Shown here: in pieces, positions 2,800-60,589 of the stretch
Numbering within the stretch: position 1 is the stretch's first letter
Layout: the number at the start of each line of letters is the position of its first letter
From: Planctomycetota bacterium
GTDB lineage: Bacteria; Planctomycetota; UBA8108; UBA1146; JAJFFE01
DNA: 64,000 nucleotides
Reading direction: 5' to 3'
Assembly (NCBI GenBank): GCA_050246115.1
Contig: JBFWWP010000004.1
Span: 98,521-162,520, forward strand
Program-made: the position numbers and the translations under genes
Notes under the pieces: generated by a model
What the model was told of the DNA's origin: nothing
Database searches by the model: none
The model's input: the letters and a program-made list of their open reading frames with translations, nothing else

Positions 2800-5700
2800 T
2801 CAGGGGCATGCAGACTGCGCACACCCCAGAGCATCGGCTGTCGGGTCCGACCCGCAGGACGATGGTGGTGGTAGCGGGCCCGAGCTGAACAGGAAGCCGA
2901 GGATCGTGATCACGTCGGCGATGTTGCTCGCACCGTCGTCGTTGCCATCGCACGCATCCATGCACGGTGGCGTGGAGCCCGCCGCGAAAGTCGCGTTGAG
3001 CAGGAAGATCGCGTCGGAGATGTCGCGCCCGCCATCCGCGTTGCAGTCGCCCCGTAAGAAGTCGGCGTTGCCCACGATCGTGCCGAGGGCCCAATCGACG
3101 GCGCGATCGATCAGATCCCGAGCGACGGGCGTCACCTGCAGCCAGGTCGAGTCCTCGAGGAACAAGAAAACACGCCGCGCGGGAGCCGCATGCCCCCCGA
3201 ACAACGGAGCGCCGGAGTCGGCGACGAGCACCGCGGCTTCGGCGGGCACGCCAGCGCGCGACGCGAGGACCGTCGCGCCGATGGGAAACGGCGAGACACC
3301 GACACTCATGTTGGCGGCGGTCGTGAAGACGGCTTGTGGAATCCCGGTCACCAGCCCCTGCGTGATGGGATGCGGCGCCACGGTCACTTCGATCGCGTTG
3401 GCTCCGAACGCCACGGCCCCGGCGTTCGCGAGCGGCTCACGATCGGGACGTAGCAGCGCGCTCTCCCAGAACAGCAGCGGCACGGCCTCGTCGCGAAACT
3501 CCGCACCGACGTTGGCCGAGGTCACGGTCGAGGACACGATGACCAAGTCATGCGTGGCGGCCAGTGCAGCTGCAGATGGGCGGTTGGCGGGCTCGTCGTC
3601 GTACGCGAGCACTTCGAGGCCACGGGCCCGCAAGTGATCGGCGAACGCTTCGTCCGCTGGGGTCGGTGGGAGCGAGCCACCGATCATGCCGACCAGCGGA
3701 AAGTCGCCGACACGCACGAACGCGACCTTCTGGGTGGCGACGAGTCCGTTCGCGCCGCTCACCCGCAAGGTGACATCGTAGATGCCGTCCTGGGCATACA
3801 CATGGCTGGGATTCTGGAGCGCACTCATCGATCCGTCACCAAAGCTCCACTCCCAAGCGGTCGCAACCGGAACGGTCGACAGATCGGTGAACTGCACGTT
3901 CAAGGGCGCGAGGCCACTCGTGACGCTGGCCGCGAAGTCGACTGCGCCGACGTATTTGATGCGCAGGATGTGGGAGCCGACGGCGGTGGGTGAAGCAAAG
4001 TCCTGGTCTGCGTAGAAGTCACTGAAATACAGCCCGTCCGGGCCGGCGGCCAGCGCGACCGCCGTGGCCTTGCCGTTGCCGACATAGCTCACGAACGGTG
4101 TGGGACCACTGATCAACGTGCCAGTCGGACTCAGAACGTACTCGCGGATCTGCTTGCCGTTCGACTGAGCACCCGTGGCCCAAGTCGGCCCCGAGTCAGC
4201 GATGAAGGCGTGACCCTGCTTGTCCGCGGGGAACAGGCTGCCGCCGAAAGTTGCGCCTTGGATGAACGCGATGTTCGTGGGCCCCACCGCGGGCGCCCAG
4301 TTGAGGATCGCGAAGTTGGTCATGCTGTTGTCGGAGCCGTTCCAGAGGTAGTTCTGGCCGGGGCTGATCTTCGCGAAGCGATCGATGCTGGGCCCGTTTT
4401 CGACCTCGTAGAGCGCTCCATCGGCTGCGCGCCAAGCACCGCCGAACGGATTGCGCAACCCATAGGCATACACGTAGTCGGCGGCGTTGATGCCGTTGCC
4501 CGCGTCGTAGAACGGATTGTCCACCGGCGCGGTGCCGTCGAGTTCGAGTCGCAGGATCTTGCCGCGGAACGAGTTCAGGTTCTGGGCCGTGCCCGCGTCG
4601 AAGCCGTCGCCCATGTGAACGTACAGTTTGCCATCCGGTCCGAGGCTCAAATTCGAGATCTGGTGGGACTGCCCCTGCGACTCACCCACCATGTTCAGGA
4701 TCACGTTCTGTTGACTCGCGGTCAGGCCTCCGTCGGTGCTCGAGAAGCGCACGACCCGCGGGTAGTGCGGCCCGCCGGCGTCGGCGAGGAAGGCTGCGAA
4801 CACATCCCCCGAACTCGGTTCGACGACGATGCCGGTGAGTCCCTGCTCTCCGGATCCGGGGAAGAGACCGGTGGGCGAGAAGTTGAGGAGGTTCGTGGCA
4901 TAGTCGGTGACGGTCCCCGACTGGGTCACCACCTTGATCGTGCCATAGAGTTCGGTCACGTAGTAGAGCGGAGCATCGGGACCGATGCCCGGGTTGGGCA
5001 CGAACGCGATGTTGACCGGCAGTCGGAATCCGCTCGCCACGATCTCCACTCGGTACCCCGGCTGGTGCATCTGCCAAGGCACCGGAATCCCGCGCGCGAG
5101 AGTGGAGAAGTCCGGTTGCGTCTGAGTACTGGACCCAACGTACGTGGCACCGACGGCGGACACCCAAAAGTAGGCATCGCTACCGAGACCGACACTCACC
5201 GACGGCAGATAGACGGTGTGCATGGCACCATCGTGGTCGGTGAAGGAGAGATCGCTCTCGGGCAGCACCAGGCCAGGGCTCAATCCCCCCGCCGAGATCC
5301 GGATCCGTGTCGGCGTGTGGAACGGGAGTGCCGGCGGATTGGTCACGGCGTTCGTCGTCCCGTCGAACCCCTGGAGCGCGAGCAGCAAGCCGCCCGTCGC
5401 GGACTCGACGAAGACTCCAGGAGCCACGGTCGCACCGGCAAGCACGACAGGTTGCCCCGAAATGTCGATCCAGGTGGGTGCGGGGGCAACCGCGAGGTCG
5501 TCGAGCTCGAGCGGGAAGATCTCGGTGGGAGGGCCGGTCACGAAAGTACGCTCCGACCACGCACTCCACTCCCCGCCGCCCGGCGCGCTGTCGTCTCGGT
5601 GACGCACCTGGAGTCGATAATCGTTGTCGTAGAAGAGCTCGGTGCGACCGGCGTGAGAACCGCTGAAGACGCCGTCGCCGAGGTGAGTGTGCACCGCTTC

Positions 5701-6210: not shown

Positions 6211-7416
6211 ATGCACCGAGATGTCCGCCTGGTCCTGATGAATGTCGTCGTGACTTGCATCCTTCTCTGGCTCGGCTCGACCTTCTTCGGCGGGACCGGG
6301 GTGGCTCTGCCGACCGCCCCCGCCCCCGGAATCTTCGTGTGGGGGGATGCCAACTGTGACGGTTCGCTCAACATCTCCGATCCAGTGACGATTCTGGGCT
6401 ATCTGTTCAGCTCGGCGCCGCTGCCTCCGGCATGCGCGCAATCCTTCTTCGCGCCGGACCAACTCGCTACCTTGCAGGAGATCCTCCCACACCTGAGCCG
6501 CGTGGAACTCGACGACGGCCTTGGCGGGACGGTCCCGACGATCCGCCTGACCGGAGTCAACCTGCAGATCGTGAACGGCTCGGGCGCGACCAACGGCAAT
6601 CCGGCAAGTCCAAACAGCGTAAACGGCATGACGAACGGGACCGGCAACTTGATCGTTGGCTACAACGAGTTCGGCACCGGCGGCAACAACCGCACGGGAT
6701 CTCACAACCTGGTCGTGGGCTCGGCGCTGCAGTACGAGCGTTGGGGCGGAGCGGTCTTGGGGCAGGGGAACGTCATCCGCGGCGCGTGGTCGAGCGTGAC
6801 CGGCGGGAACGCCAACACCGCCATCGGGGACTACGCCGCGATCACCGGCGGTCTCAACAACGAAGCTGCCGGCGACTACTCGTCGATTTCGGGTGGGCAG
6901 TTCAATGCCTCGAGCGGAGACATCGGTTGGGTCGGCGGCGGCAATGCCAACGAGGCCGCAGGAGTCGAGTCGTGCGTGTCGGGGGGAGCCAGCAACACGG
7001 CCCTCGGCGCCGCCTCCGCGGTGAGCGGCGGCGAGTTCAACAGTGCGGACGGTGACCGAGCCAGCGTGGCGGGTGGCAGAGCGAACAGCGCGGTTGGGCT
7101 CGGTGCCGTGGTCGTCGGCGGCCAAGACAACTTCGCGGGTGGCGTGCGAGCGGCGGTGTTCGGCGGGCAACGCAACGAGGCCGACGGAACCGCCGCGGTC
7201 GTGGTGGGTGGCGGCGGACCGGATCCGTTCCTGGACGGCAACCGCGCGCTCGGCGACTGGTCGGTGATCACGGGCGGACGCCAAAATGACGCGACTGGCA
7301 ACGGCTCGACCGTCGGCGGTGGACGTCAGAACGTCACCGCTCCCACCGCCGAGTACTCGGTGGTGGCAGGCGGCTGTTTGGAAACGACGTTCAGCCCGTG
7401 CGAGCTTGCCCCGTAG
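6211..7416 (+). CDS. Secreted repeat protein: N-terminal signal/TM, a single dockerin-like half-repeat, then ~14-residue 'GG-x-N-x-A-x-G' tandem repeats (YadA-head / tail-fibre-like)
   Basis: ATG at 6211 with GGAG 7 nt upstream. N-terminus: 'GDANCDGSLNISDPVTILGYLFSSAPLPPAC'. Then 'SVTGGNANTAIGDYAAITGGLNNEAAGDYSSISGGQFNASSGDIGWVGGGNANEAAGVESCVSGGASNTALGAASAVSGGEFNSADGDRASVAGGRANSAVG...'. Ends 'GGCLETTFSPCELAP'. Confidence 0.6.
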   Translation: MHRDVRLVLMNVVVTCILLWLGSTFFGGTGVALPTAPAPGIFVWGDANCDGSLNISDPVTILGYLFSSAPLPPACAQSFFAPDQLATLQEILPHLSRVELDDGLGGTVPTIRLTGVNLQIVNGSGATNGNPASPNSVNGMTNGTGNLIVGYNEFGTGGNNRTGSHNLVVGSALQYERWGGAVLGQGNVIRGAWSSVTGGNANTAIGDYAAITGGLNNEAAGDYSSISGGQFNASSGDIGWVGGGNANEAAGVESCVSGGASNTALGAASAVSGGEFNSADGDRASVAGGRANSAVGLGAVVVGGQDNFAGGVRAAVFGGQRNEADGTAAVVVGGGGPDPFLDGNRALGDWSVITGGRQNDATGNGSTVGGGRQNVTAPTAEYSVVAGGCLETTFSPCELAP

Positions 7417-10703: not shown

Positions 10704-12380
10704 ATGAGGTCTTGGAGCATGTGGGCAGTTCTCATCGCAGGCTTCGGCTGGGGCACCCCCCTCCTCGGCCAGCCCGGTACCACGATCATCACCCATGGCT
10801 TCCAGTTGGACGGCGTGCTCCCGGCGTGGCCCGCGGTCATGGGTGCCGCGATGGCGCAGCTTCCCCAAGCCGCCGCGCCCACGGGCACCGTCCTCGTGTA
10901 CGACCCGAGCACCGGCGCGTGGTCTCCCGTGTTCGGTTCCGGAGACCCTACCGGGGAGATCGTCTTGATCTTCGACTGGGCCGACGACTCGTCGTGGTTT
11001 CCCGGCGACGACGATCGGCAGGGAACCGCTCATGGGGCGGCCGCCGCCCTCTACGGCGCGCTCCGTGCCCCGCACATTAGCGGCGCCCCGGCAATGACGA
11101 GCTTTCTCGCATGGCCGGGAGGTGCACCTCGACGACTCCACTTCCTGGGCCACAGTCGTGGGACCTGCGTGAACAGCGAGGTAGTTCGTCGACTGGTGGT
11201 CGCGGGCTACACGGTAGACCACGTCACGACGCTGGATCCTCACCCCGTTGGACCGGTGGCCGATCTCCTTGACCCGCAGCCGACCACTTGGGTTGGTGTG
11301 AACTGGGCCGACAACTACTTTCGTCAGGATGACTGTGACCTCGACTACGGTTGTTTCGGGTTCGACTTCGATGGTCAGCAGATCATCGGTGCCGCGAACC
11401 ACGACCTCGGGCTCGACGCCTTCGGACTGATCGACAACCGCCTGAACAGTTGCAGCTTGGAGCACTCCTTGGTGCACACCTGGTATCACGGCACGATCGA
11501 TACCGCGACGGCGTCGGACGGCGACTGTCCGGTCGAGCGTGCCAACTGGTACTTCGCGGGGGGGGTCGGCGAAGGTTACGCCTTCTCGCAGGTCGCGGGT
11601 GGAGCCTCGCAACGTCCCTGTGGTCCGAGCGGCGGGTGCGCGGACGCGGGACGCACCGTCGCGACGCCAGCGTCCCCGATCATCAACGGCGACTTCGAGT
11701 TCGGGGCATTCCAGGACGCGGGATGGCGCTGGCACGGTGGCGGCGGCCCAGGGCGGATCATCGAGGAATCCGGGAACTCCTTCCTGACCCTCGACTCCAC
11801 GGGGCCGTCGCGGACTCACAGTCGTTTCTACCTGGACGTCTTCGCAACGAACCTGCAGTACGACCTACGGGTGTTCGCGCCGGGGGCCGCAGCTTCCTTG
11901 GTGATCACGTTGAGAGAAGCCGGATCGCTCGTCGACCTGCTCATCGACAGCGTCCCGCTCTCGTCTTCGACGTCCTGGAGCGCTCGCAGCGTTGACCTGA
12001 CCAGCATCCCCAAGGGGCGGCTCTACTCGCTGACGGTAGCGCTCACGCCCGCCAACACCTTGGCCATTGCCGACCTGGACGAGTTCGGCCTCGAGTTCGC
12101 GGCCGGACCGCAGTTCTGGCGCGGCGACTGCAACGGCGACGGCGCCATCGATCTCGCCGACGCCGTGGCGGCGCTCAGCGCCTTGTTTGGAGCCGGTGGC
12201 CCGCCGCCTTGTGGCGTCGCTTGCGACGCGAACGACGACGGCACGTTCGACGTGGCCGATGCGGTCTCGACCCTGCTCGCGCTCTTCGGATCGGCGGGTC
12301 CGCTACCGCCCCCCAGTGTCGGCTGCGGACCCGACCCGACCGCAGATGCGCTGGATTGCGCAAACCCGACCTGCCCATGA
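10704..12380 (+). CDS. Secreted alpha/beta-hydrolase (lipase-like, GHSRG nucleophile elbow) with beta-sandwich region and C-terminal dockerin module + Cys-rich tail
   Basis: ATG 10704 with AAGG upstream. Signal-like N-terminus. 'LHFLGHSRGTCV' matches GxSxG. C-terminus: 'FWRGDCNGDGAIDLADAVAALSALFGAGGPPPCGVACDANDDGTFDVADAVSTLLALFGSAGPLPPPSVGCGPDPTADALDCANPTCP'. Confidence 0.75.
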   Translation: MRSWSMWAVLIAGFGWGTPLLGQPGTTIITHGFQLDGVLPAWPAVMGAAMAQLPQAAAPTGTVLVYDPSTGAWSPVFGSGDPTGEIVLIFDWADDSSWFPGDDDRQGTAHGAAAALYGALRAPHISGAPAMTSFLAWPGGAPRRLHFLGHSRGTCVNSEVVRRLVVAGYTVDHVTTLDPHPVGPVADLLDPQPTTWVGVNWADNYFRQDDCDLDYGCFGFDFDGQQIIGAANHDLGLDAFGLIDNRLNSCSLEHSLVHTWYHGTIDTATASDGDCPVERANWYFAGGVGEGYAFSQVAGGASQRPCGPSGGCADAGRTVATPASPIINGDFEFGAFQDAGWRWHGGGGPGRIIEESGNSFLTLDSTGPSRTHSRFYLDVFATNLQYDLRVFAPGAAASLVITLREAGSLVDLLIDSVPLSSSTSWSARSVDLTSIPKGRLYSLTVALTPANTLAIADLDEFGLEFAAGPQFWRGDCNGDGAIDLADAVAALSALFGAGGPPPCGVACDANDDGTFDVADAVSTLLALFGSAGPLPPPSVGCGPDPTADALDCANPTCP

Positions 12381-13603
12381 CTTCGAGCCCCCAAGAGCCG
12401 GGGTGGCGGCGCAGCGTCGGCGTCATTCATTCCGTAGGATCGTGGATCCTCGTGTTGGGGCTGGGCGTCGCAGCGCTACTGGTCGTCACCCCCGCTCCCA
12501 GCCTCGCGCTGTTTCGACTCGGCTTGATCGTGACGGAGTACGGGCACTGGCTCGCGCCAGCCCTCGTCGCAGTGGTGCTCACCACCCGCGCGCGCGACAC
12601 GACCGGGCGCGTTCGTCGCCTGCGGATCGGTCGCTCGGCGCTCGCTCTGGTTGCGGCCTCGCTGCTGATCAGCCCAGCAGTGCGCGCGTCGAACGCTGCG
12701 CCTGGCATCGCGGCCACGCTGACCGAAGCTGGCCTCACGCCCAGGGACCCCGTTGCCGGACGGCTTCGCGGGACACCGTTGCACGCCCTCGAACTGTGGC
12801 TCGGCGTCCCCGTGGATCGCCGCCCGATCGTCGAACGGACCTACTCACGATCCACGGGGGTAGACCTGAGACTCGACTTCCTGGCTGCAAGCGGCGCTGG
12901 AGAAGCCGGCAAGCCGTGCGTCGTCGTGGTCCACGGTGGTGGTTGGGACAGTGGTTCGCGCAAGGAGTTCCCCGAGCTATCGCACTATCTCGCGAACCGC
13001 GGGGTGAGTGTCGCCAGCATCGATTACCGGCTCGCACCCCGGCACCCCTGGCCCGCAGCGCGCGACGACGTCGTCACCGCGCTCGAGTACCTGCGCACGA
13101 ACGCCGTCGAACTCGACATCGACCCGAACCGATTCGTGTTGCTCGGCCGTTCCGCAGGTGCCCAAGTTGCGGCCGCGGCGGCGTACTCCCGTGCGGATCT
13201 CGGCGTCTGCGGACTGGTGGCGTTGTACGGCCCCATGGACATGCACTTCGCTTGGCGTCACGCCCGTGCCGATGACATTCTGGATTCGCCGCGCCTGATC
13301 GCGAGTTACCTCGGAGGCTCCCCTACTGCGGTGCCCACGGCATTCGACGAGGCCTCCCCCATCGGCTTCGTGAACGCGAGTACACCACCGACCCTCCTCC
13401 TCCATGGACTACGGGATGACCTGGTCTGGTACCGTCAGAGCGAGCGCCTCGCGGAACGGCTCGCATCCATGGGGGTTGCGCACGCGCTGATCCAGCTCCC
13501 CTGGGCAAACCACGGGTTCGACTATAACCTGAGCGGGCCGGGTGGGCAGGCCACGGTCTATGCCGTGGAACACTTCGTGGCTGCGGTCACCGACAGCGGT
13601 TGA
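12377..13603 (+). CDS. Membrane-anchored alpha/beta-hydrolase, esterase/lipase fold-3 (HGGG oxyanion motif, GRSAG nucleophile)
   Basis: Start trimmed to the ATG at 12377, which overlaps the upstream stop as ATGA (12377-12380). N-terminal hydrophobic helices. 'VVVHGGGWDSGS', 'LLGRSAGAQVA', 'LLLHGLRDDLV...WANHGFD'. The upstream 168 nt of the track ORF overlap the lipase gene in another frame and are R-rich. Confidence 0.75.
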   Translation: MTSSPQEPGWRRSVGVIHSVGSWILVLGLGVAALLVVTPAPSLALFRLGLIVTEYGHWLAPALVAVVLTTRARDTTGRVRRLRIGRSALALVAASLLISPAVRASNAAPGIAATLTEAGLTPRDPVAGRLRGTPLHALELWLGVPVDRRPIVERTYSRSTGVDLRLDFLAASGAGEAGKPCVVVVHGGGWDSGSRKEFPELSHYLANRGVSVASIDYRLAPRHPWPAARDDVVTALEYLRTNAVELDIDPNRFVLLGRSAGAQVAAAAAYSRADLGVCGLVALYGPMDMHFAWRHARADDILDSPRLIASYLGGSPTAVPTAFDEASPIGFVNASTPPTLLLHGLRDDLVWYRQSERLAERLASMGVAHALIQLPWANHGFDYNLSGPGGQATVYAVEHFVAAVTDSG

Positions 13604-24498: not shown

Positions 24499-24826
24499 TC
24501 GAAGAACTCCGCAACCGGCCGGAGGGTGGAACGGCCACCCCATTAGAGAGGTCCGCGACCCCCAATGCAACAGGCAGCACCTCCAGCCGTCCAGCCGGCC
24601 AGCGACCGGGGAGCGCCCGAGGCCACTCGTGGCGTCTTTGCGTCCAGGTGTGTTCCAGCGAGACCGAGGCCGGCGCGAGGGACTCGGAGATGGAGTGCGC
24701 ACTCGTGACGTGGACCCTCAACGCGCGGGAAACATGCACCCCGGGCGATTGACACCGGCGCGGTCCATCGCGGGCCAGAGAGACGCAGCGAGCCCCGTAG
24801 CAAGATCCACCAACGAAAGGGCGACC

Positions 24827-27271: not shown

Positions 27272-27281
27272 TCCGCACGAG

Positions 27282-42961: not shown

Positions 42962-43255
42962 AGCGAATTCTCGGAGCTTTCTCTGCGGGGGGATCAAAAG
43001 GCCTGCGAAATGCCGCACCTCGAGGCACGCAAGCCAGGGCGAAGACGCCCGGGAGACGACTCACCGGACGAATCTCGCGGGTTGGCGCCAGTCGAGCCGA
43101 TCCGGGATTGCGCATCTGCGCGTCCGCCCTGCACTATATCTTCCAGCAAGGGCTAGAGTTAAGATAACCGCTATCGACTCTTACGACTTCAGGGGAGGAA
43201 TTCTAGGGACCATGTTGGGGCAGATCAACAACGATTTCCCGTTCGTGAGCACGCC

Positions 43256-44167: not shown

Positions 44168-44244
44168 ACGGTACACCTGGAGTCACGCGGTCGTCCGCGC
44201 ACCTCGCCCTCGGCGAAACGGGATCGGGATCGGTGTTCGCCGGT

Positions 44245-45171: not shown

Positions 45172-45434
45172 CTTCGCCGCGCGCCCTTTCCTGGGGCAAC
45201 GAGATCCGAGTCACGCTGCGGATCTCTGCCTCCAGAAGATTAGCCCGGCGGCCCGAACGCTTCAAATCGACGCCCCCGGAACGTCTTCACAAGTCCAGGG
45301 GAAAGAAAGGACTTAGATGCGTTCGCGGCAGGCGTCTCGAACCCCTGACCCGGCTCTCCGGAGGCCGCTCCGGGCGAGGTGCCAGGAGGACCCGCCGTAT
45401 CCCCGAGGGGGACGACCGGCGTCGGATCGATTGC

Positions 45435-46691
45435 CTACGGACAGGCGAGGTACGGCGCGGTCGGGTCGGTTCCCGGGGAAGGAAATGGTGCGGCCGGCGG
45501 CACTCCCTCGAGAAACAGGTAGGTGCCGAGGCTCACCGCGTCCGAGATCTGGACCTTGGCGTTGTCATCGACATCGAGCGCGGCGACACAGGGAGGTGAC
45601 GGCATGGCTCCGGTCGCGACGAGCGCTAGCACGACGAGGTCGGAGAGGTCGAGGTGGAGATCGTCGTTCGCGTCCCCCCGCAAGAAGGGGCGCTGGGGAA
45701 TGATCTCGATCACACCGTTCATGAGGAGCGGGCTCACCGACTGCAGATCGATCACGAAGACGTTCTGCACCGGCGGAGTCCCGAAGCCGTCCTCGAGAGT
45801 CACCGCGACCTCGCTCACGGCGATCGCTTCCGGTCGAACCGCGACGACCAGTTGGGCGATGGTCTGAGCCTGTCCGATCGGCGGGATCGACTGGGAATCG
45901 AACGGCGGTAGCAGGTCGAGCAGGATCCCCACCACGAAAGTGCCGAGGGCGTTGTCGATGTTGGCTTCGAAGAACTCCGCGCCCACCGCTTCGGTGATGG
46001 TGCCGTCGATGGTCACGTCTTGACCGATCACGTACGCGGTGTCGAACGCTCCCGAAATCGAGAGTCCTTGAAGATCGTCGGTGTTCACGGCCATGAGCGG
46101 CACCCGGTGACCCTCGACGCCGATTCCGGCCACGGAGTCTCCAACGAAGAGGATGTTTTCATCCGTAACTTCGATCGATCCGTTCGCCACGGCCGCGGGG
46201 ATCTCGACTCCCGCAGCGAGAGCCATGTTGGGCAGGTCACCGGGCGTCGTGCGAAAGTCGACGAACACCAGCGTGCCTGGACTGAGGCCGTTCTCGATCT
46301 CCAGCCTGAGGGTGGCAACCCCCTGGTCCACGCCAACCGGGATCAGGTCGTCGAACGGCGCCAGACTGTCGAGCAGGGAGGTCACGTCGACATGCCCGGC
46401 GCTCGGGTCCACCATGATCCACTGAATCTCCGGGTCGACGCCTGCCAGAACGTCCGCGAGTTCGAAGCCAACGTAGTTCGCCTTGAACGCGTCGTAAGCC
46501 ATCGCGACCTGAAACCCATGGAGCGGGGTCACCGTCGTTACGGTGAGGGGAACCGCGGCGATCGCACCCGGGTAGGTCGTGACTTCCCCGAGTCGAAACT
46601 CGAGGTCTTGTGCACCCACGAAAGCGGGCAGCACACAAGAAACCACGAAGACGGTGCGTGGAACGAGCAGACGCAGTCCTTGGGTGGGCAT
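45435..46691 (-). CDS. Scaffoldin-like secreted protein: signal peptide + two cohesin-like domains + C-terminal dockerin module
   Basis: Trimmed to the ATG at 46691 ('MPTQGLRLLVPRTVFVVSCVLPAFVGAQ'). Domain 1: '...GAIAAVPLTVTTVTPLHGFQVAMAYDAFKANYVGFEL...LVFVDFRTTPGDLPNMALAAGVEIPAAVANGSIEVT'. Domain 2: '...GHRVPLMAVNTDDLQGLSISGAFDTAYVIG...VFVIDLQSVSPLLMNGVIEI'. Then 'RGDANDDLHLDLSDLVVLALVATGAMPSPPCVAALDVDDNAKVQISDAVSLGTYLFLEGVPPAAPFPSPGTDPTAPYLACP'. Confidence 0.65.
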   Translation of the reverse strand: MPTQGLRLLVPRTVFVVSCVLPAFVGAQDLEFRLGEVTTYPGAIAAVPLTVTTVTPLHGFQVAMAYDAFKANYVGFELADVLAGVDPEIQWIMVDPSAGHVDVTSLLDSLAPFDDLIPVGVDQGVATLRLEIENGLSPGTLVFVDFRTTPGDLPNMALAAGVEIPAAVANGSIEVTDENILFVGDSVAGIGVEGHRVPLMAVNTDDLQGLSISGAFDTAYVIGQDVTIDGTITEAVGAEFFEANIDNALGTFVVGILLDLLPPFDSQSIPPIGQAQTIAQLVVAVRPEAIAVSEVAVTLEDGFGTPPVQNVFVIDLQSVSPLLMNGVIEIIPQRPFLRGDANDDLHLDLSDLVVLALVATGAMPSPPCVAALDVDDNAKVQISDAVSLGTYLFLEGVPPAAPFPSPGTDPTAPYLACP

Positions 46692-47440
46692 TGATTGGAG
46701 TCTCCGCTGGGCACTTGGATCCTCCGGGGAAAGCAGTCTCGGTTCAACCGGAGGGGTGGTGCGAGGTCGTTGGGACCGAAGGTCGCGCAAGCGCCCGATC
46801 ATACTGCCGATGCGGGGCCGCGCCAACGTCCTGGACGAATTGACGGTCGGAGGCTCCCGAAGCCGAAGCAGTACGTCGGTCTCGCGCGGCAGCGATGGGG
46901 TGGGTAAGGGACGGAAGCAGAGTGACCGAGGCAGGCGGACCGGAACCAAAAATGGGGGAAGCCCACGAACTCCGGAAGCCCAATCAATGCCCGCCGATGT
47001 GGACCTCTTCGTGACTTCCCCCCCAAGAAAACAGTGCTCCGTTAGCAAGCCAACATCCACATCGGAAGACTATTCATAAGCCAAACTTTGAACTTCTCTT
47101 AGGAACACATCCCGAAATCATCAGAGTCCCCGACGACTCAAATCCGAGCACACGGACCCAGGGATCTCCCTGATGTCGCCGGTGAGGCGCGGACAGGAAA
47201 TCTCCAAGACCTGAAATATTCAGTGCTTAATCGTCGCATACTCAATGCGACGAGACGCGTCGAAACACGACAAGCGACGCCGTTTGGCCCCGGGAAACGA
47301 AGTGAACGGTGCGCTGATTCGTGGCACCGGGTCCCGGACGGGTACGAAATGGACGCGGGTAAGCCACCGTCGGTAGGCGGCCCTTCGGAGGCCCCTGCGG
47401 GAGAATCGGGCTCGACGCCGATGGGGTAAGCGTCGGCCGG

Positions 47441-48832
47441 TCAGGCTTGGATCCGGTACTTGTGCATCAGCCGGTAGAGCCGATTCCGGTCGATCCCGAG
47501 GAGGTCGGCAGCCCGCGTCTTCACCCCGCCAGCAACCTGGAGCGCTCGCATCAGATGGCTTCTGACAATGCTGTCGAGCCGCGGGAACGCTCGCCCGCTG
47601 TCCGAATCCGGAGTTTGAGCCCGAGCCAGGAGATCCGCGGGCAGATCGTCGCGCAGGATCTCGGTCGCGCTCTTGCCGAGGGCGAACGCGCGTTCGATGG
47701 CGTTCTGCAGCTCCCGCACGTTTCCCGGCCAATCGTAGCTCTGAAAAACATCCATCGCCTCGGGGCTGACTCGCTTCGGCGGCACGCGATAAGACTTGGC
47801 GGTGCGGGCCACGAAGTGCTCCACCAGCGCTGGGACATCGTCCACGCGATCCCGCAGCGGCGGGACCTGGATGTTGACGACGTTGATCCGATAGTAGAGG
47901 TCCGCCCTGAACTTGCCCTCCTGGACCAGCTTCGCGATCGGTTGGTTGGTCGCGGTGATGACCCGGGCGCGAATCGGCACGGGCTGGGTCGCCCCCAGCG
48001 GAGTGACCTCTTGCTCCTGGATCGCACGGAGCAACTTGACCTGCAGGTCGAGGTCCAGCTCGGTGATCTCGTCCAGGAACAGGGTCCCCGCTTTGGCCGC
48101 AACGAACACTCCTTCGTGGTCACTGAACGCCCCGGTGAACGTGCCGCGCTTGAAACCGAACAGCTGGCTCTCGAGCAAGCTGCGAGCGAAGGCACCACAG
48201 TTCACGGCCATGTAGGGTCGATCGGCAGCAGCGCTACCGTTGAGACCTTCGGCCTTCAACCCCGCCGTGTGAATCGCACGAGCGATGAGTTCCTTGCCCG
48301 TGCCGGGTTCGCCTTGGATCAGGATGCGTGAGGGCGTCACCGCGACGCGTGCGATCATCTGGAAGATCTCGCGCATCCCGGGGTTGGTTCCGATGATCTC
48401 GCCGTAGCGCCCGTCTTTGACGACCGCAGAGGCGAATTCGGAGTTCTCCGTCCGGAGACCAGCGACCCGGAGCCCCTTGGCGACGCCAACGAGTAGCTCC
48501 GACGGGTGCAGCGGCTTGAGCAAGTAGTCGGAAGCGCCCGCCGCCATCGCCTTCACGGCCGAGCGGACATCCGCATCTGCGGTGAGCACGATGATCGGCA
48601 CGTTCGGCCACGACCGACTCACCTGTTCGATCAGACCGCTGCCACTCGCGGATACGTTCAGGTCGGCGATGACGAGGTCGACGCGTCGCAATTCGAGGCG
48701 TTCGAGCGCTTCCGTTCCGGTGCGGACGGTATCGACGAGATACCCTTCGCGCTCGAGCAGGTCCCGGAAGGTCTCGAGGATGACGGGATCGTCGTCGACG
48801 ATCAGAATGCGGCCCGCTTCGGCTCGGATCAT
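47441..48832 (-). CDS. Sigma-54-dependent response regulator (NtrC family: REC + AAA+ sigma-54 activator + HTH)
   Basis: 'ILIVDDDPVI...DLVIADLNV' REC domain. 'GEPGTGKELIARAIH', 'GAFTGA', 'LYYRINVVNIQVPPLRDR'. C-terminal HTH 'AADLLGIDRNRLYRLMHKY'. Confidence 0.93.
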   Translation of the reverse strand: MIRAEAGRILIVDDDPVILETFRDLLEREGYLVDTVRTGTEALERLELRRVDLVIADLNVSASGSGLIEQVSRSWPNVPIIVLTADADVRSAVKAMAAGASDYLLKPLHPSELLVGVAKGLRVAGLRTENSEFASAVVKDGRYGEIIGTNPGMREIFQMIARVAVTPSRILIQGEPGTGKELIARAIHTAGLKAEGLNGSAAADRPYMAVNCGAFARSLLESQLFGFKRGTFTGAFSDHEGVFVAAKAGTLFLDEITELDLDLQVKLLRAIQEQEVTPLGATQPVPIRARVITATNQPIAKLVQEGKFRADLYYRINVVNIQVPPLRDRVDDVPALVEHFVARTAKSYRVPPKRVSPEAMDVFQSYDWPGNVRELQNAIERAFALGKSATEILRDDLPADLLARAQTPDSDSGRAFPRLDSIVRSHLMRALQVAGGVKTRAADLLGIDRNRLYRLMHKYRIQA

Positions 48833-49861
48833 CGAGTCGCCCCCTCACCACGGGGACGTCTGCGGTCCGTCGCCAACGTACCGTCGAGTGGCGCGACGAA
48901 GGTCTGCCGTTCGCTACGAACGCGCACTTCGTTGCGGGCGCGATGGTCAAGCCCCCTGCACCCACCCCCGAACTCGGAATCACCCGAGCTGGAGGCGTGA
49001 CTTCCCCTAAGCATGACAGAGTCCTCCCGGTGCCCGTGGATCTCGCCTGGCTACCGAACGTGACGCCTGCTGTGCCGCTGCTTCTCGGAGGGGGGATGTG
49101 GAGAATAACACAACCCAAGCCGGTGATAAGGCCTAGATCCAAAAAAGTCGGGCCGAGGAGGGGTGGTGGCGAGGGCGACTCGCTCCCGACCGAGCAACGG
49201 GAGCGAACACACGGGCGGCCAGGACGATCCACACCACGCGCAAGGCCCGGCCGCCCGTTTTCACATGACTCGGTCAGAGGCCGGACCCGACTCCGGGGCG
49301 AGTCGACGCTGCGTCCGGCGGGAGAGCGCCCCGCTTCTTGCGAACGAGGGGGCGCTCGGGCTGCAGAAATGGCAGGGGCGGACGGCCGGTGCTCATCGAA
49401 GCGGGTCGTACCGATTGGCCGTTCGTAGCCCCTATAGGTTCAGTGAAAACAGGCAGCCGGCCTTTTCCTCTTCCAGCACACCAAAACAACAAACCGAGAT
49501 TCCGGCTGCCTGTAGTTCGAAAGTTCTGCTGTTCGAAGCGTCGCGGCGCTCGTCTCGCGCCGCACACCCCTAGCCTCGCACGACGCCGAGTCGTTGGCGA
49601 ACGGCAAACTTTGTCGAGCCGGGAGTCCGGGAATCCCGCCCAAGACAGCCGACTCCGGGCACCCGTGAGCCAACGCTGCCGATCGGAGTCGACGGGCCTT
49701 GAAATCACCGGGCCCGCGCGACACTCTTGACCCACGCGCTCGTGCCGCTTCCGCCCGACACGGTCGACCGGGGGCCGGTCGCCCGCCGCGTCCAGGCCCC
49801 CCGTCTTGGGCCGCCAGACTCGAGAGTCTCGCGCATCGCCGTGCGAGTCGAAGGAAACAGC

Positions 49862-51340
<1,479 letters not shown>

Positions 51341-55344: not shown

Positions 55345-57399
55345 ATGGAAGCGGTGATCTCGGTCGCGTCGACCTGCGTCCTGCACCTGCCGCTGCTGCT
55401 CGCCTCGCGTCGATTCAACCGTTGCTTCTTCCCCGCCGAGTGTCGCGCTCAGGAATGGCTGCAGATCTTCTTCGTGGCCTGCGTCATCTGGCGCCTCGAG
55501 ACATTGCTCCTGCACGCGTGCGGGGCGGTCCATTGGCCGGCGGTGGTCGGCGCCCATGTCTTGATCTGCGCCGCGTGCAGGATCGCTACTTCGCGAACCG
55601 TCACTGCCCCTCCGGGCGCGGCCACACCGGCACCCCAGAGCGGTGGACCGACGACGTTCGTGGCTGCGGGCTGGATCGTGCTGCTGGCGGCTCTCGCCCT
55701 CCACCGCGTCGTCTTTCTCCCGGATCCTTACGACGCACTCACCTACCACCTCATGCTCCCGGTGCACTGGCTGCAGACGGGAAGCCTTCAACTCCTTGCG
55801 ACACCGTTCGGCGACGCCTCGCCTGGCTACACCCCGGAAGCGGTCGAGGGGTTCTTCCTCGCGCTGATGCTCCCCAGCGGACACGACTCCTTGGCACGCG
55901 TCGGTCAGTTGCCGCTGGTGCTCGCCGCCGCCTACTTGGTGTTCGACCTGACGCGACGTGAGCGTCGAGAGTCGCCGACTTGGGTGGCGGCAGTCGCCGC
56001 GAGCGCGTTCCTGCTGCTGCCGGATCTGCTGACTCAAGGAACGAACTCCATGGCCGACGTCGGTGCCGCGGCGTTCTTCCTCGGTGCTTGCCAACAGCTC
56101 ACACGTTACCGTGACGAAGGAAGCGCGGCGCGCGCAGTCCTCGGCGGCGCACTCGCAGGTCTCTTCGTCGCGAGTCGCTTCCCGGCCTTGCTCGCGTTCC
56201 CCCTCCTCGTAGCGCCATGGGTCGTGACGCTGCGCCGCAACAAGCGCCACGCGGCGCTGTTCCTCGCGTCGACCCTGGCGACCGGCGCATTTCCATACCT
56301 TCGCAACTGGATGCTCACCGGCAATCCGGTCTATCCGCTCGCCGTCGACTTCGTGGCCGGACTCGGGTTTCCTGGGCTCTTCACCCGCGACGCCATGACC
56401 CAGTCGATCTTCCACCTCGAAGGTCAAAAGCTGCTCGACTACTACCTCTACTACTTGCGCGCGGGCCTCGGATGGTGCGCCGCCGGAGTGATTGCGCCGC
56501 TCCTGTTGTACCGACGCCCAACGACGTTGGGGTACGCACTCGGCGGGGCAGTGCTCCTCTGCTTGCAGCTCTTCGTCATGCCCTTCAATGCCAATGGTCG
56601 GTTCATCTTCCCCGCCTGGGCCTGGCTGGTCATCGCGGCCGCGAGCGCGCTCGGCGCCTCCCGGGGTGGCCGCGTGATTTTGGCCATCGGCTGCGGTGCG
56701 CTCGCGTGCGACACCCTGTGGGTGTTCCCGCTCTGGGCCATGAGTCGCGGGCACACCCTCTCGTTGGTCGCCGCAGGAGTCTTCCTTCTGGGGCTCAACA
56801 CCGCCTGGCTCCTTGCGCGGCTGTCGCCCCGGGCCCGCGTCACGAGTTGGGCGACTGCCGCGACGCTCTGGCTCGTCGCCCTAGGGGTCGCCGGGGTGAA
56901 GCGTGAAGCACGACTCGATCGCATCTGGGCGCGAGATCATCGCTACGCCCCCTTTCGCGACGGCTGGCGCACGGTACGCATGGATCTCCCGGCATTGCTA
57001 GCAGCCGACGGCTCGGCTCGACCGCTGCGAATCGCCTATACCGGACTCAACCTGCCCTACCCGCTGACGGGCAGCGCTCTCGCGAACCACGTCACTACCG
57101 TTCCCCTCGACGGCGGCCCGTCCGGTCAGCTCCCCCACGAGCAACGGCTGCGCCTACCCGACTACGACCTCAACCGACACACCGTGGTACTGGCACTCGA
57201 CCGCATGCGACCGAACCGCGCTGCATGGCGTCAGGCCCTCACACGCGACGCGATCGACGTCCTCGCCGTCTACGTGCAACCGGGCCACGACGTTCCCATC
57301 GAGTATCGTTGGGCAACGGCGGACCCCGCGAGCTTCGAACCCATCGACACCGGCGCCGCCGAAGGACAGTTGCTGCTGTTTCGCGTGCGGGAGCCGTAG
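55345..57399 (+). CDS. Polytopic membrane protein, GT-C-fold glycosyltransferase-like (mannosyl/arabinosyl-transferase-type topology)
   Basis: 684 aa, >10 predicted TM helices with large loops ('FLPDPYDALTYHLMLPVHW', 'LAFPLLVAPWVVTL'). Architecture resembles the PMT/ArnT/DUF2029 classes. No precise family assignable by eye. Confidence 0.45.
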   Translation: MEAVISVASTCVLHLPLLLASRRFNRCFFPAECRAQEWLQIFFVACVIWRLETLLLHACGAVHWPAVVGAHVLICAACRIATSRTVTAPPGAATPAPQSGGPTTFVAAGWIVLLAALALHRVVFLPDPYDALTYHLMLPVHWLQTGSLQLLATPFGDASPGYTPEAVEGFFLALMLPSGHDSLARVGQLPLVLAAAYLVFDLTRRERRESPTWVAAVAASAFLLLPDLLTQGTNSMADVGAAAFFLGACQQLTRYRDEGSAARAVLGGALAGLFVASRFPALLAFPLLVAPWVVTLRRNKRHAALFLASTLATGAFPYLRNWMLTGNPVYPLAVDFVAGLGFPGLFTRDAMTQSIFHLEGQKLLDYYLYYLRAGLGWCAAGVIAPLLLYRRPTTLGYALGGAVLLCLQLFVMPFNANGRFIFPAWAWLVIAAASALGASRGGRVILAIGCGALACDTLWVFPLWAMSRGHTLSLVAAGVFLLGLNTAWLLARLSPRARVTSWATAATLWLVALGVAGVKREARLDRIWARDHRYAPFRDGWRTVRMDLPALLAADGSARPLRIAYTGLNLPYPLTGSALANHVTTVPLDGGPSGQLPHEQRLRLPDYDLNRHTVVLALDRMRPNRAAWRQALTRDAIDVLAVYVQPGHDVPIEYRWATADPASFEPIDTGAAEGQLLLFRVREP

Positions 57400-57751: not shown

Positions 57752-60589
57752 CTACGGACACGGCGGGAAGCTGTTGCAACCCAGACCATCGTTGGTCGGA
57801 TCCGGTCCGCAGATCGGGAACGGCGCCGGCGGCGGAGCTCCGCCACTGAACAGGAACGCGAGGTTCCAGATCGCATCGGCGATGTTCAGATTGCCGTCGT
57901 CGTTCGAGTCGCACGCATCGTCGCACACCGGCGGAGCGGGCACGGTGCCACCGGGGAACAGGAACCCGAGCAATCGGATCCCGTCGGCGATGTCGACCAC
58001 GCCGTCCGCGTTGCAGTCGCCACGAATCAGAGCCTGCACGCCAACAACGGCTTGCGCGGCGGACAACGTGGGATCGTGCTGCGCGGACATGCCTGGATCG
58101 TGGAAACCCGACTGGACCGGGGTATGCACCGCGGAGTGGATCGGGTTGTGGGCCGCGGAGGCCATCGGATCGTGAACCACGGAGAACGACGGATCATGGA
58201 TCGCAGAGTCACCAGCGCTGTGCATGCTGGTCCAGAACGGATCGTGGATCGTCGAAGTCAGCGGCCCGTGCAGCGCACTCTCACCGGGGATGTGAACGCT
58301 CGAGACGCCCGGATTGTGGGTCGCGGACAAGCCCGGATCATGCTGCGCCGAGTTGAACGGCGAGTGTACCGACGACGTGAGCGGATCGTGGTTCGCGGAC
58401 AGCGCCGCGTCGTGGACCACCGACTGCGCGGGGTCGTGCTGCGCCGAAGCCGCCGGATCGTGCATGCCGGACCAGTGAGGATCGTGCACGGTCGAGGTCA
58501 GCGGATTGTGCAACACGCTGTTGGCTGCGTCGTGAACCGACGAGATCGCCGGGTCGTGCGTACCCGAGACCGTCGGGTCGTGCTGATTCGAATTGAACGG
58601 CGAGTGCACGACGCTGATGGACGGATCGTGCTGCGTCGACGTGGTCGCGTCGTGAACGTTGGAGCGGGCCGGGTCGTGAACGACCGACTGCGTGGGATCG
58701 TGCTGCATCGACCAGAACGGGTCGTGCGTGTTCGATCCCAGTGGGTCGTGCTGACCCGACAAGGTCGGCACGTGCACCGTCGAGACCGCCGGGTCGTGGA
58801 TGTCGGACGCCAACGGCCGGTGGACTCCGGACATCAGCGGCGCGTGCACACCGGACACCAACGGATCGTGGTGGTTCGAGTTGAACGGCGAGTGCACCGC
58901 ACTCACCACGGGTACGTGGACTTGCGACAGTCCCGGCTCGTGGATGTTGGTGGTCACCGGGTTGTGGAACTGCGACAACGAGGGGTCGTGTTGCGACGAC
59001 CAGAACGGGTCGTGCACCGCCGAGTTGAACGGGTTGTGGTTGCTGCTGATCCCCGGCTCGTGGATCGGCGAGATCGTCGGGTTGTGGAACGACGACACGC
59101 TCGGACTATGCGTCACCGACTGATCCGGAGCATGGAAGATCGAGTTCAGCACCGGGTGCGAGCCCGACACGAGCGGATCGTGCTGCGACGACAGGGTCGG
59201 AGCATGGAACGGCGACAGCGCCGGGTCGTGTTGGCTCGAGACGAACGGATCGTGTTGAGCCGACATGACCGGAGAGTGCACGGTCGACACTACGGGGTCG
59301 TGCTGCGCGGTCAGGGCCGGGTCGTGCACCGCCGACAAGTTGGGATTGTGCGTCGACGAATCCGCGGCGGTGTGCATGCCGGTCCAGTGAGGATCGTGGA
59401 CGAGCGAGGTCGATGCAATGTGCTGAGAGCTCGGCCCCGGCAAGTGGACGCCGGACACGAACGGGTCGTGGCCGGACCCCGACAAGTTGGGGTTGTGGGC
59501 CGAGAAGGTCGGGTCGTGGCCCGTGGCCGTCAGCATGGGATCGTGCAAGGGCGACAGCGTCGCGTCGTGCTGGCTGGTCACCACTGGGTCGTGGATCGGC
59601 GAGATCGACGGATCGTGCATCGAGGTCCACAACGGATCATGCAGCTGCGAGAACTCCGGCGGGTGAGCTTGGCTCATGCCGGGATCATGCAACGGCGACA
59701 AGCCCGGCACGTGCACCTGCGACACGAACGGCTCGTGCTGGTCGGAGCGAATCGGCGCGTGCATGACCGAAGTCAGCGGCTGGTGCGTGTTGGTCATGGT
59801 CGGATCGTGGACGATCGACTGAGCGGGGTCGTGGGTGCTGGAGATCGCCGTGTCGTGCATGGACGACCAGAACGGGTCGTGGATGTCCGACGTCAGCGGG
59901 TTGTGCAGGCTGCTGCTGGCCGGATCGTGGATCGAGGAGGTCACGGGATCGTGAGTGCCGGACGTCGCGGCGTCGTGCTGCGCCGAGACCATCGGTGCGT
60001 GTACCGATGAGTCGAACGGCTGGTGCACCATCGACTGGTTCGGGTTGTGCAGGATCGACGCCGCGGGTTCGTGGATCGCGGACTGGGCTGCCGTGTGCAT
60101 GCCGGTCCAGTGGGGATCGTGCACATCCGAGGTCAACGGGTTGTGGAGCGTGCTGCTGCCGGGGTCGTGCACGGCGGAGATCGCCGGATCGTGGCCGGTC
60201 GACACGCTCGGGTCGTGCTGCTGGGAGGTCAGCGGTGAGTGGACCGCAGAGTCCAGCGGCGCGTGAATCGGCGACAGGTCTGGATCGTGCAGAATCGACA
60301 CCGCCGGGTCGTGCAACGCCGAGTTCGTGGCCGTGTGCATGCCCGACCAAACCACGTCATGGATGGTCGACGTCAGGGGGTTGTGCAGGGCGCTCTCGCC
60401 CGGGATGTGGACGACCGAAAGCGCTGGGTCGTGCTGAACCGACATCGCCGGATCGTGCTGCGCCGAAGCGCCGGGGTCGTGCAACACCGACGCCACTGGG
60501 TCGTGCGTGGTTTGTGCAAACGAATGCGAGGGCACGCATGCGGCAAACGCGCATACGACTCCCGCGATCACGAGACACTTGCGAAGCAT
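57752..60589 (-). CDS. Secreted protein consisting of ~100 tandem octapeptide repeats (consensus H-D-P-x-x-S-x-x) followed by a C-terminal dockerin module + Cys-rich tail
   Basis: Trimmed to 'MLRKCLVIAGVVCAFAACVPSHSFAQ' (signal peptide) at 60589. Residues ~29-850: 'HDPVASVL HDPGASAQ HDPAMSVQ HDPALSVV ...'. C-terminus: 'LIRGDCNADGVVDIADGIRLLGFLFPGGTVPAPPVCDDACDSNDDGNLNIADAIWNLAFLFSGGAPPPAPFPICGPDPTNDGLGCNSFPPCP'. Confidence 0.8.
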   Translation of the reverse strand: MLRKCLVIAGVVCAFAACVPSHSFAQTTHDPVASVLHDPGASAQHDPAMSVQHDPALSVVHIPGESALHNPLTSTIHDVVWSGMHTATNSALHDPAVSILHDPDLSPIHAPLDSAVHSPLTSQQHDPSVSTGHDPAISAVHDPGSSTLHNPLTSDVHDPHWTGMHTAAQSAIHEPAASILHNPNQSMVHQPFDSSVHAPMVSAQHDAATSGTHDPVTSSIHDPASSSLHNPLTSDIHDPFWSSMHDTAISSTHDPAQSIVHDPTMTNTHQPLTSVMHAPIRSDQHEPFVSQVHVPGLSPLHDPGMSQAHPPEFSQLHDPLWTSMHDPSISPIHDPVVTSQHDATLSPLHDPMLTATGHDPTFSAHNPNLSGSGHDPFVSGVHLPGPSSQHIASTSLVHDPHWTGMHTAADSSTHNPNLSAVHDPALTAQHDPVVSTVHSPVMSAQHDPFVSSQHDPALSPFHAPTLSSQHDPLVSGSHPVLNSIFHAPDQSVTHSPSVSSFHNPTISPIHEPGISSNHNPFNSAVHDPFWSSQHDPSLSQFHNPVTTNIHEPGLSQVHVPVVSAVHSPFNSNHHDPLVSGVHAPLMSGVHRPLASDIHDPAVSTVHVPTLSGQHDPLGSNTHDPFWSMQHDPTQSVVHDPARSNVHDATTSTQHDPSISVVHSPFNSNQHDPTVSGTHDPAISSVHDAANSVLHNPLTSTVHDPHWSGMHDPAASAQHDPAQSVVHDAALSANHDPLTSSVHSPFNSAQHDPGLSATHNPGVSSVHIPGESALHGPLTSTIHDPFWTSMHSAGDSAIHDPSFSVVHDPMASAAHNPIHSAVHTPVQSGFHDPGMSAQHDPTLSAAQAVVGVQALIRGDCNADGVVDIADGIRLLGFLFPGGTVPAPPVCDDACDSNDDGNLNIADAIWNLAFLFSGGAPPPAPFPICGPDPTNDGLGCNSFPPCP
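58045..60505. repeat. 24-bp in-frame tandem repeat array (coding for the HDPxxSxx octads), ~100 units, with a 240-bp super-period
   Basis: On the plus strand 'ggatcgtg' (reverse complement of CAC-GAT-CC = His-Asp-Pro) recurs every 24 nt. The Trp-containing octads (HDPxW[ST][GS]M) recur about every 10 units. Confidence 0.85.

Follow-up and report, generated by a model that had tools for sequence, protein, structure and literature searches.

A candidate non-cellulosomal cohesin-dockerin assembly encoded in a Planctomycetota genome

Genome surveys have detected cohesin-dockerin modules in many phyla, and what these modules do outside cellulosomes is a long-standing question. Non-cellulosomal cohesins and dockerins are known from such surveys (Peer et al. 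2009, as cited in PMC6461901 and PMC8542988), and expansions of dockerins have been reported in Planctomycetes (PMC5264255). For the freshwater Planctomycetes Nemodlikiaceae, an extracellular cohesin/dockerin complex named the "planctosome" has been proposed on computational grounds (Andrei et al. 2019, PMC6461901), and we found no test of this proposal in the papers naming it that we consulted. A cellulosome-like complex was also inferred for the Cloacimonadota bacterium "Ca. Stygibacter" (PMC8542988). We analyzed a 64,000-nucleotide stretch of a Planctomycetota genome (contig JBFWWP010000004.1, positions 98,521 to 162,520; here called the window) in which five genes encode proteins with a dockerin-like module, one of which also carries two cohesin-like domains. 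A first-pass annotation of this DNA had described a dispersed cohesin-dockerin system of a PVC-type bacterium and had called such assemblies essentially uncharacterized in this group. The guess at the host was right, since the two-cohesin protein is 100% identical to hypothetical protein AB7O52_04605 of a Planctomycetota metagenome-assembled genome (MAG) at NCBI. The claim to uncharacterized ground holds insofar as the planctosome is purely a computational proposal and fails insofar as the idea had already been put forward for this phylum.

The five open reading frames (ORFs) are present as annotated, and we refer to their products as proteins A to E. Protein A (2800-5961, minus strand) has a signal-like N terminus, a glucose/sorbosone-dehydrogenase beta-propeller, a PKD domain, a further, unassigned domain of about 200 amino acids (aa), and a C-terminal dockerin. 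Protein B (6211-7416, plus strand) has a signal- or anchor-like N terminus, a single F-hand corresponding to half a dockerin, and repeats resembling the heads of UspA1 and YadA, while protein C (10704-12380, plus strand) combines a putative alpha/beta-hydrolase domain, a beta-rich middle domain, and a C-terminal dockerin. In protein D (45435-46691, minus strand), a signal peptide is followed by a pair of cohesin-like domains and a divergent dockerin, and its ORF is the sole cohesin-bearing one in the window. Protein E (57752-60589, minus strand) has a signal peptide, about 100 octads of the form H-D-P-x-x-S-x-x within an 80-aa super-repeat, and a C-terminal dockerin. By inspection rather than by a predictor, all five proteins begin with a signal-peptide-like hydrophobic stretch.

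Four of these ORFs end in a module of about 88 aa with two Ca-loop repeats, and in the fifth, B, one such repeat follows the signal peptide. The Ca-loop expression D.[NDS].[DN]G.{4,6}D, applied to all six frames of the window, gave exactly 7 matches, none of them outside the named ORFs, with two apiece contributed by A, C, and E and one by the region near the N terminus of B (mean of 0.16 matches and maximum of 2 in 100 block shuffles). A hidden Markov model (HMM) of the module, built from the four window copies and their relatives, picked exactly the same five ORFs, with the four full copies at 103 to 113 bits (E about 1e-31 to 1e-34) and the half copy of B at an E value of 1.3e-6. The full modules are residues 968 to 1053 of A (2803-3060, minus strand; 105 bits), residues 471 to 558 of C (12114-12377, plus strand; 103.5 bits), residues 335 to 418 of D (45438-45689, minus strand; 103 bits), and residues 855 to 945 of E (57755-58027, minus strand; 113 bits). 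In A, the two loops are DCNADGGRDISD and DGNDDGASNIAD, and the tail reads ...CGSDPTADALGCAQSACP. The annotated pair of Ca-loop repeats is present in strict form in A, C, and E; in D, both loops are degenerate (DANDDLHLDLSD and DVDDNAKVQISD) and fall outside the strict motif because they have no Gly at position 6. The half dockerin of B (about residues 43 to 78; 6337-6444, plus strand) comprises GDANCDGSLNISD, a helix, and PLPPAC, and its counterpart in the alignment is repeat 2 of the complete module. By eye, its F-hand (…ISDPVTILGYLFSSAPLPPAC) is very like dockerin repeat 2 (…IADVITILGFLFSSGPLPPPSSC) of A, its divergently transcribed neighbor.

Profile and model comparisons identify the C-terminal modules as dockerin homologs, as the first-pass annotation had proposed. 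When we searched an 18-sequence profile of the module against all PDB chain sequences, the twenty best matches were cellulosomal dockerins (best, 2y3n_B; E = 4.6e-7), and EF-hand proteins appeared only at E values of 0.016 or higher. Residues 38 to 66 of B also matched a dockerin (5m2s_B; E = 0.0027). An AlphaFold2 (AF2) model of the E dockerin, made from a 124-sequence alignment, had a mean predicted local distance difference test score (pLDDT) of 94.4 and a predicted template modeling score (pTM) of 0.86. The thirty best Foldseek matches of this model in the PDB were all dockerins (probability, 0.9 to 0.99; template modeling [TM] score, 0.65 to 0.79), with troponin and caltractin at a probability of 0.01. 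The modeled fold corresponds to the paired F-hands and three-helix arrangement of dockerins. We rejected a generic EF-hand or thrombospondin-type identity for the module because dockerins outranked EF-hand proteins by far in both the profile and the fold searches. The Ca-ligand positions 1, 3, 5, 9, and 12 of both loops were 83 to 98% conserved among 155 copies. Relatives do reach Pfam Dockerin_1: 19 of 45 large family members matched it at an E value below 1e-3 (best, 2e-15), and about a third of the relatives' fragments carried a precomputed PF00404 assignment. Only 6 of the 75 relatives that carry the module without cohesins matched Dockerin_1 at an E value below 1e-4, which indicates that Pfam sees this dockerin subtype poorly, and NCBIfam gave nothing for either the module or the cohesin-like domains.

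The subtype has features of its own beyond the two helices. These are followed by PPxPxP and then by (C)GxDPTxDxLxC, often with a terminal CP, and this tail of about 25 aa is ordered in the E dockerin model (pLDDT, 81 to 96) yet non-helical. Three pairs of cysteines recur. The core pair, C32-C81 (PPC and LxC), is nearly invariant (present in 97% and 95% of copies), the members of C5-C36 (GDC and AC|D) co-occur with a phi of 0.82 (Fisher P = 5e-27), and those of C70-C87 (CGxDPT and the terminal Cys) co-occur with a phi of 0.66 (P = 3e-17). These patterns suggest up to three disulfides per module, with the pairing taken from Cys co-occurrence and not from coordinates, and such disulfides would imply that the module folds under oxidizing conditions, in the periplasm or outside the cell. 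All six cysteines are present in the dockerins of A, C, and E, the half copy of B has two, and the dockerin of D has the core pair only (PPC ... LAC-P).

The two domains that precede the dockerin of D, residues 29 to 178 (46158-46607, minus strand) and residues 179 to 334 (45690-46157, minus strand), were annotated as cohesin-like, and both their predicted fold and their relatives bear this out. HMMs of the two beta domains matched D alone in the window, and twice, with each domain cross-matching the other; domain 1 scored 131 bits, and domain 2 carries the motifs GTITEAVGAEF and LLDxLPPFxxQxIPP. The AF2 model of D, from 23 sequences, had a pLDDT of 87.5 and a pTM of 0.68, and both beta-sandwiches exceeded a pLDDT of 90. 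The top Foldseek match of this model was a ScaA type II cohesin dyad (E = 8e-13), followed by CipA Coh-X-Doc and dozens of single type I cohesins (TM score, 0.75 to 0.82; root mean square deviation, about 3 Å; 15 to 25% identity). The modeled domains fit the nine-stranded, flattened beta-sandwich (jelly roll) of about 140 to 150 residues that is typical of cohesins. In the wider family, an extra N-terminal domain of 600-aa relatives matched solved cohesins at an E value of 4e-4 with the family profile, and 15 of the 45 large members matched Pfam Cohesin at an E value below 1e-3 (best, 5e-8), two of them, P0145 (26.3 bits) and P0155 (25.4 bits), above its gathering score. The assignment of the two domains of D as cohesins is thus supported by modeled fold and by a transitive sequence link. 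With the cohesin HMMs, no window ORF other than D had a cohesin, consistent with the annotated absence of an anchoring scaffoldin from the window.

The dockerin of D differs from those of the putative cargo in a way that its orthologs share. Its helices span residues 349 to 359 and 382 to 394 in the AF2 model, and alignments of the orthologs showed a conserved subtype, GDA-N/D-x-D/N-L-x-L-D-L-S-D, that has no C1/C3 cysteines (the second Cys pair is missing) and no Gly6 in loop 1. Such conserved divergence would be expected if the D-type dockerin recognized another partner than the cargo dockerins do, and it may be a hint of such specificity.

Cohesin-like domains and the module are tightly coupled in a large family. 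A word-indexed search with D returned 24 relatives; a full HMMER pass over 1.84 billion cluster representatives, with a profile restricted to the cohesin-like domains, returned 1,941 at an E value of 1e-3 or below and 199 at 1e-30 or below, with 2 to 6 cohesin-like domains and lengths of up to 1,424 aa. Among the 146 top representatives, 131 carried the module (in 128 cases at the very C-terminal end), and most of the 15 without it end inside a domain or are frameshifted. For an independent sample, we took 79 metagenome loci (768 kb), with a cargo-type module as the sole ground for choosing them. It contained 166 module ORFs, 94% of which had the module at the extreme C terminus (within 12 residues of the stop codon), and at least two module genes were present in 43 loci. 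The module was found on 51 of 51 cohesin-like ORFs and was missing from none, and about two thirds of the module ORFs (115/166) had no cohesin. With nearly every cohesin protein carrying a dockerin, the family may have no anchoring scaffoldin of the classical, dockerin-free kind. Members with a taxonomic placement came from Planctomycetota MAGs, apart from one Eisenbacteria fragment, and a scan of GTDB representatives with a narrow motif gave six loci, all in Planctomycetota MAGs, with the window's own genome not among them.

Module genes in relatives also stand in consecutive order, four in locus L003 and five in L011, most of them with cohesin-like domains. These same-strand runs of four to five module-ending genes extend over 5745-17356 of L003 and 6876-15086 of L011, most of the genes having one to three cohesin-like domains, and further such runs lie at about 4750-12830 in L022, L067, and L069, which are Planctomycetota-like contigs. 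The module is not strictly a C-terminal element, since 10 of the 166 copies are separated from the stop codon by more than 12 residues, being near the N terminus or internal in proteins of 500 to 950 aa (for example, L018 710-3358, L087 1594-4443, and L081). In P0148, a 1,243-aa protein from a Logan assembly, a dockerin placed right behind the signal peptide begins an alternating series of four dockerins and four cohesin-like domains; such a protein might polymerize or fold back onto its own modules, and it could also be an assembly artifact.

The gene for D occupies a conserved chromosomal position. Drawn with D rightward, the order is PurF (leftward), sigma-54 response regulator, D, double-FHA protein (all rightward), XerC (leftward), PyrD, and SecA (both rightward), with DksA/TraR entered between the XerC-like gene and PyrD, and it is kept in the window (41622-51340) and in three divergent Planctomycetota MAGs (L004, L006, and L008). 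Identity across the four MAGs was 57 to 69% for SecA and 32 to 40% for D. Gene order kept in four divergent MAGs argues that D is an old and vertically inherited gene of this lineage, not a mobile accessory, and its lower identity relative to SecA argues that it is fast evolving. Since the upstream neighbor of D encodes a sigma-54 response regulator, we looked for a sigma-54 promoter. Matches to TGGCAC-N5-TTGC with one mismatch numbered 2 in the window versus 3.6 expected, neither near D, and we dropped this candidate; an upstream alignment of the four orthologs contained no conserved block in the gap of about 750 bp upstream of D and no -24/-12 match.

Relatives that carry the module without cohesins point to a broad and non-cellulolytic cargo, as the first-pass annotation had proposed for the dehydrogenase/PKD protein, putative hydrolase, adhesin head, and repeat protein of the window. 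The 75 such proteins had galactose-binding-like domains (12 proteins), proprotein-convertase P-domains (9 proteins), FG-GAP, PKD, and LamG domains, and di-heme peroxidases. Single cases were a subtilase, C25 and M66 peptidases, a sulfatase, LPMO_10, a SASA esterase, a cupredoxin, a dioxygenase, an arylsulfotransferase, and an EEP nuclease. No glycoside hydrolase family was among the 25 most frequent families listed, of 32 matched in all.

Large cohesin proteins of the family combine Big_5, FG-GAP, two to four cohesins, and a dockerin, or SdrD_B, cohesins, and a dockerin, and Pfam found no S-layer homology (SLH) domain or carbohydrate-binding module (CBM) in the 45 examined. About eight proteins of the Big_5/FG-GAP/cohesin/dockerin class, which are about 950 to 1360 aa long, have a lipobox N terminus (e.g., ...LAGAGC|SKS). 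One lipoprotein of this class with three cohesins, P0179 (L012 10001-13513), comes from a MAG that also has a syntenic ortholog of D. We consider the lipoprotein multi-cohesin proteins the best candidates for an anchor because P0179 shares its MAG with the D ortholog and with three-cohesin proteins. That MAG, JACQVS01 (NC_groundwater_1469), has the ortholog of D, two three-cohesin proteins, and P0179 on separate contigs (L008, L009, L010, and L012) and encodes at least 11 cohesin-like domains.

Based on these results, we lean toward the view that the locus encodes parts of a genuine cohesin-dockerin assembly of Planctomycetota, in a version not dedicated to cellulose. The five proteins, of which A would be a sugar dehydrogenase of the PQQ type, would be exported by the Sec pathway, each with a Ca2+-binding F-hand dockerin that would fold with Ca2+ and one to three putative disulfides and with its tail of about 25 residues ordered. 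The two cohesin sandwiches of D are predicted to act as sockets for two dockerin-bearing proteins, binding them with some specificity, and D would most likely use its own dockerin, which is conserved and divergent, to bridge them to a further cohesin-bearing partner. As dockerins occur on every cohesin protein of the family, these contacts would be expected to yield a branched non-covalent network and not a single scaffold. This network would presumably lie at the cell surface, probably tethered by lipoprotein-type Big_5/FG-GAP/multi-cohesin/dockerin proteins like those of the related MAG, and an equivalent anchor may exist in this genome. A stronger version, in which the modules polymerize head to tail into a self-assembling, branched surface lattice, a phylum-specific envelope matrix tethered by lipoproteins with D as its conserved core connector, is speculative, and we would not bet on it. 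If it were true, the matrix would display enzymes, adhesins, and repeat fibers.

Several observations weigh against a cohesin-dockerin assembly. No window copy passed the gathering threshold of Pfam Dockerin_1 (22.9 bits): C reached 18.2 bits (E = 0.0028) and E reached 14.3 bits, and A, B, and D gave nothing at an E value of 1 or below. Pfam Cohesin (threshold, 24.1 bits) likewise gave no match for D at an E value of 1 or below, and a profile of the D-type domains searched against PDB sequences reached the ScaC cohesin alone, at an E value of 0.3. The first-pass annotation had held that failure of these profiles, together with the lack of a cohesin-bearing anchor elsewhere in the genome, would refute its proposal; Pfam did fail on the window copies, which goes halfway to that outcome, and we consider this overridden by the family profile, the fold evidence, and the relatives that pass Dockerin_1. 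The five module genes are dispersed between housekeeping genes with no common operon, and the sca-like runs of module genes seen in relatives are absent from the window. A profile of the lipoprotein class gave no AB7O52-tagged protein as an anchor in the window's MAG, in a candidate list swamped by FG-GAP proteins. Finally, no dockerin-free cohesin protein of the classical anchor type was seen in the family, which would fit a network and a dockerin that does not bind cohesins equally well.

This last point is the core of another explanation, that the module is a general tag for retention or attachment to an envelope glycan, an outer-membrane protein, or itself, and that the cohesin-like sandwiches are passengers serving as Ig-like adhesin or spacer domains. 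We regard it as possible and have our doubts. It would account for a family in which no dockerin-free receptor occurs, every cohesin-like protein has the module, and most module ORFs have no cohesin, and the surveys of Peer and colleagues in 2009 reportedly found that dockerins often outnumber cohesins or occur without them. The adhesin-like partner domains of the cohesin proteins (Big_5, FG-GAP, and SdrD_B) and the marginal sequence similarity of the D-type domains to proven cohesins fit it too. A tag does not predict the obligate co-occurrence and the tandem clusters of cohesin and dockerin genes, both as expected of co-evolving binding partners, nor fold matches specifically to cohesins that bind dockerins, and the conserved divergent dockerin on the orthologs of D suggests discrimination between partners.

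The sub-threshold Pfam scores, the EF-hand Pfam match of one relative, and a Ca-loop pattern common to EF-hands would also suit a module that is no more than a folding cap stabilized by Ca2+ and disulfides, a generic EF-hand- or thrombospondin-type-3-like element with no partner. The tail and the cysteines point to a stability role, for which the ScaA dockerin, with its non-covalent "intramolecular clasp" (PMC3821032), is a precedent. We nevertheless think this explanation unlikely, as dockerins rank far above EF-hand proteins in the profile and fold searches, copies at the N terminus or inside proteins, along with the half copy of B, argue for a modular binding unit, and a cap would leave the strict linkage to cohesins and the gene clustering unexplained. 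The position of 94% of the copies next to the stop codon, together with the extreme diversity of the cargo and a secretin gene in the window (28299-30527), brings to mind a C-terminal secretion or sorting signal like the C-terminal domains (CTDs) of type IX secretion (T9SS) or PEP-CTERM. This we consider very improbable: the predicted fold is a helical F-hand pair and not a beta-sandwich CTD, no hydrophobic anchor segment is present, some copies lie at the N terminus, inside the protein, or several times in a single protein, with the half copy of B itself N-terminal, and we know of no sorting system with a dockerin fold.

The cargo proteins of the window were otherwise as diverse as annotated. 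The sugar-dehydrogenase/PKD label of A agreed with Pfam (GSDH, E = 1e-32; PKD_4, E = 5e-14). Protein B had no Pfam match of any kind, and its YadA-head-like label was borne out by a match of residues 184 to 375 to the UspA1 head (3pr7_A; E = 2.8e-20). This match covers head repeats only, the protein ends about 25 residues beyond it, and we found no YadA-type C-terminal beta-barrel anchor in B; if B trimerizes as UspA1 heads do, three half dockerins would come together. The label of C as a lipase fared less well, with a GHSRG nucleophile elbow in its favor and, on the other side, a Pfam Lipase score of E = 0.2 and no PDB sequence match. An ORF at 12209-13603 (plus strand) overlaps the 3' end of C by about 170 nucleotides in another frame and matches the BD-FAE/Abhydrolase_3 esterases at an E value of 2e-38, so that C may have another hydrolase gene as its immediate neighbor, or else the start of this second gene was called too far upstream. 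The annotated His-octad repeat of E was confirmed: its repeat region (about 58040-60511) has 108 His, with a spacing of exactly 8 residues in 93 of 107 successive His pairs, Pro at position 3 in 80 and Ser at position 6 in 87 of the 93 units, and Trp every 80 residues, giving the super-repeat of 10 octads. The DNA repeats have diverged (73 to 79%), Pfam matched only low-complexity Cornifin and Dockerin_1 (E = 0.049), and the region may be a metal-binding or solenoid fiber.

The window has a G+C content of about 66% and ordinary chromosomal content, with genes for SecA, MetK, a Kdo transferase, PyrD, a XerC-like recombinase, PurF, a secretin, a sigma-54 response regulator, an extracytoplasmic function (ECF) sigma/anti-sigma pair, and tetratricopeptide repeat (TPR) proteins. 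The secretin gene (Pfam Secretin, E = 1e-29) lies between two large ORFs without Pfam matches (25706-27271 and 31302-32954), and upstream of it are genes for a 964-aa FHA protein (21808-24702) and an 819-aa HEAT-repeat protein. The region from 25706 to 32954 may be a secretion or pilus locus, and no link between it and the dockerin proteins was found. Neither a module nor a cohesin signal was seen in its two large ORFs or in the ORFs at 55345-57399 and 60665-62071, which also lack Pfam matches.

This is not a new kind of system, because non-cellulosomal cohesin-dockerin systems, including the planctosome and the Cloacimonadota complex, have already been proposed. What appears to be new is a dockerin subtype with an extended tail and putative disulfide staples, the size of a cohesin family that Pfam largely overlooks, the almost unbroken rule that its cohesin proteins carry a dockerin, and the conserved syntenic two-cohesin gene, with lipoprotein multi-cohesin proteins as likely tethers. 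Sequence models are now defined for both the cohesin family and the dockerin subtype. For direct tests, the locus offers a compact set from a single organism: the two cohesins of D and five dockerin variants, among them the divergent dockerin on the scaffoldin itself and the half copy on an adhesin head that is probably trimeric. Confirmed binding would reveal a way for a diderm phylum that lacks classical anchors to display its varied exoproteins and would provide oxidation-stable cohesin-dockerin pairs for the protein-engineering toolbox.

The described systems resemble this one in different parts. With the planctosome it shares non-cellulosomal cohesin/dockerin proteins in Planctomycetes and the P-domains that recur in the relatives. 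The planctosome model has its own parts, namely, a lamin-tail-domain (LTD) anchor with a cohesin, an adaptor with an N-terminal dockerin, a hyalin repeat (HYR), and a cohesin, and M12B/M14 peptidase cargo, and Pfam found no lamin-tail, HYR, or M12B/M14 domain in the window proteins. "Ca. Stygibacter" likewise belongs to a diderm phylum and has signal-peptide proteins with C-terminal dockerins and non-cellulolytic cargo; its scaffoldin is a 3,755-aa protein with tandem cohesins, CBMs, and a T9SS-type CTD, whereas the cohesin proteins here are small and always have a dockerin. The trimeric autotransporters UspA1 and YadA resemble protein B alone, in their head repeats. B has no stalk or beta-barrel anchor and has an N-terminal half dockerin instead, so its attachment would have to be non-covalent.

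The clostridial type I pairs (Clostridium thermocellum Xyn10B-CipA, 1ohz; Clostridium cellulolyticum, 2vn5) have the same fold of both modules, two F-hand repeats of about 22 residues with ligands at positions 1, 3, 5, 9, and 12, and the dockerin at the C terminus of secreted proteins. The features by which a cellulosome is recognized, dockerin-borne plant-cell-wall glycoside hydrolases, a scaffoldin CBM, and an SLH or sortase anchor, are absent here, and the host is a diderm planctomycete. The dockerins here also differ in their extra ordered tail and up to three putative disulfides, in having I/L and A/S at recognition positions 10 and 11 where clostridial dockerins have S/T, and in being present on every cohesin protein. 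Protein D itself is most like the adaptor scaffoldins (ScaB of Acetivibrio cellulolyticus and the ScaA-type dyads 3l8q and 4uyp), which also combine cohesins with a differing dockerin in a small non-catalytic protein, and a cohesin dyad was the best structural match of its model. Unlike them, D has only two cohesins and is encoded by a conserved single-copy gene in a housekeeping neighborhood and not in a sca-type cluster.

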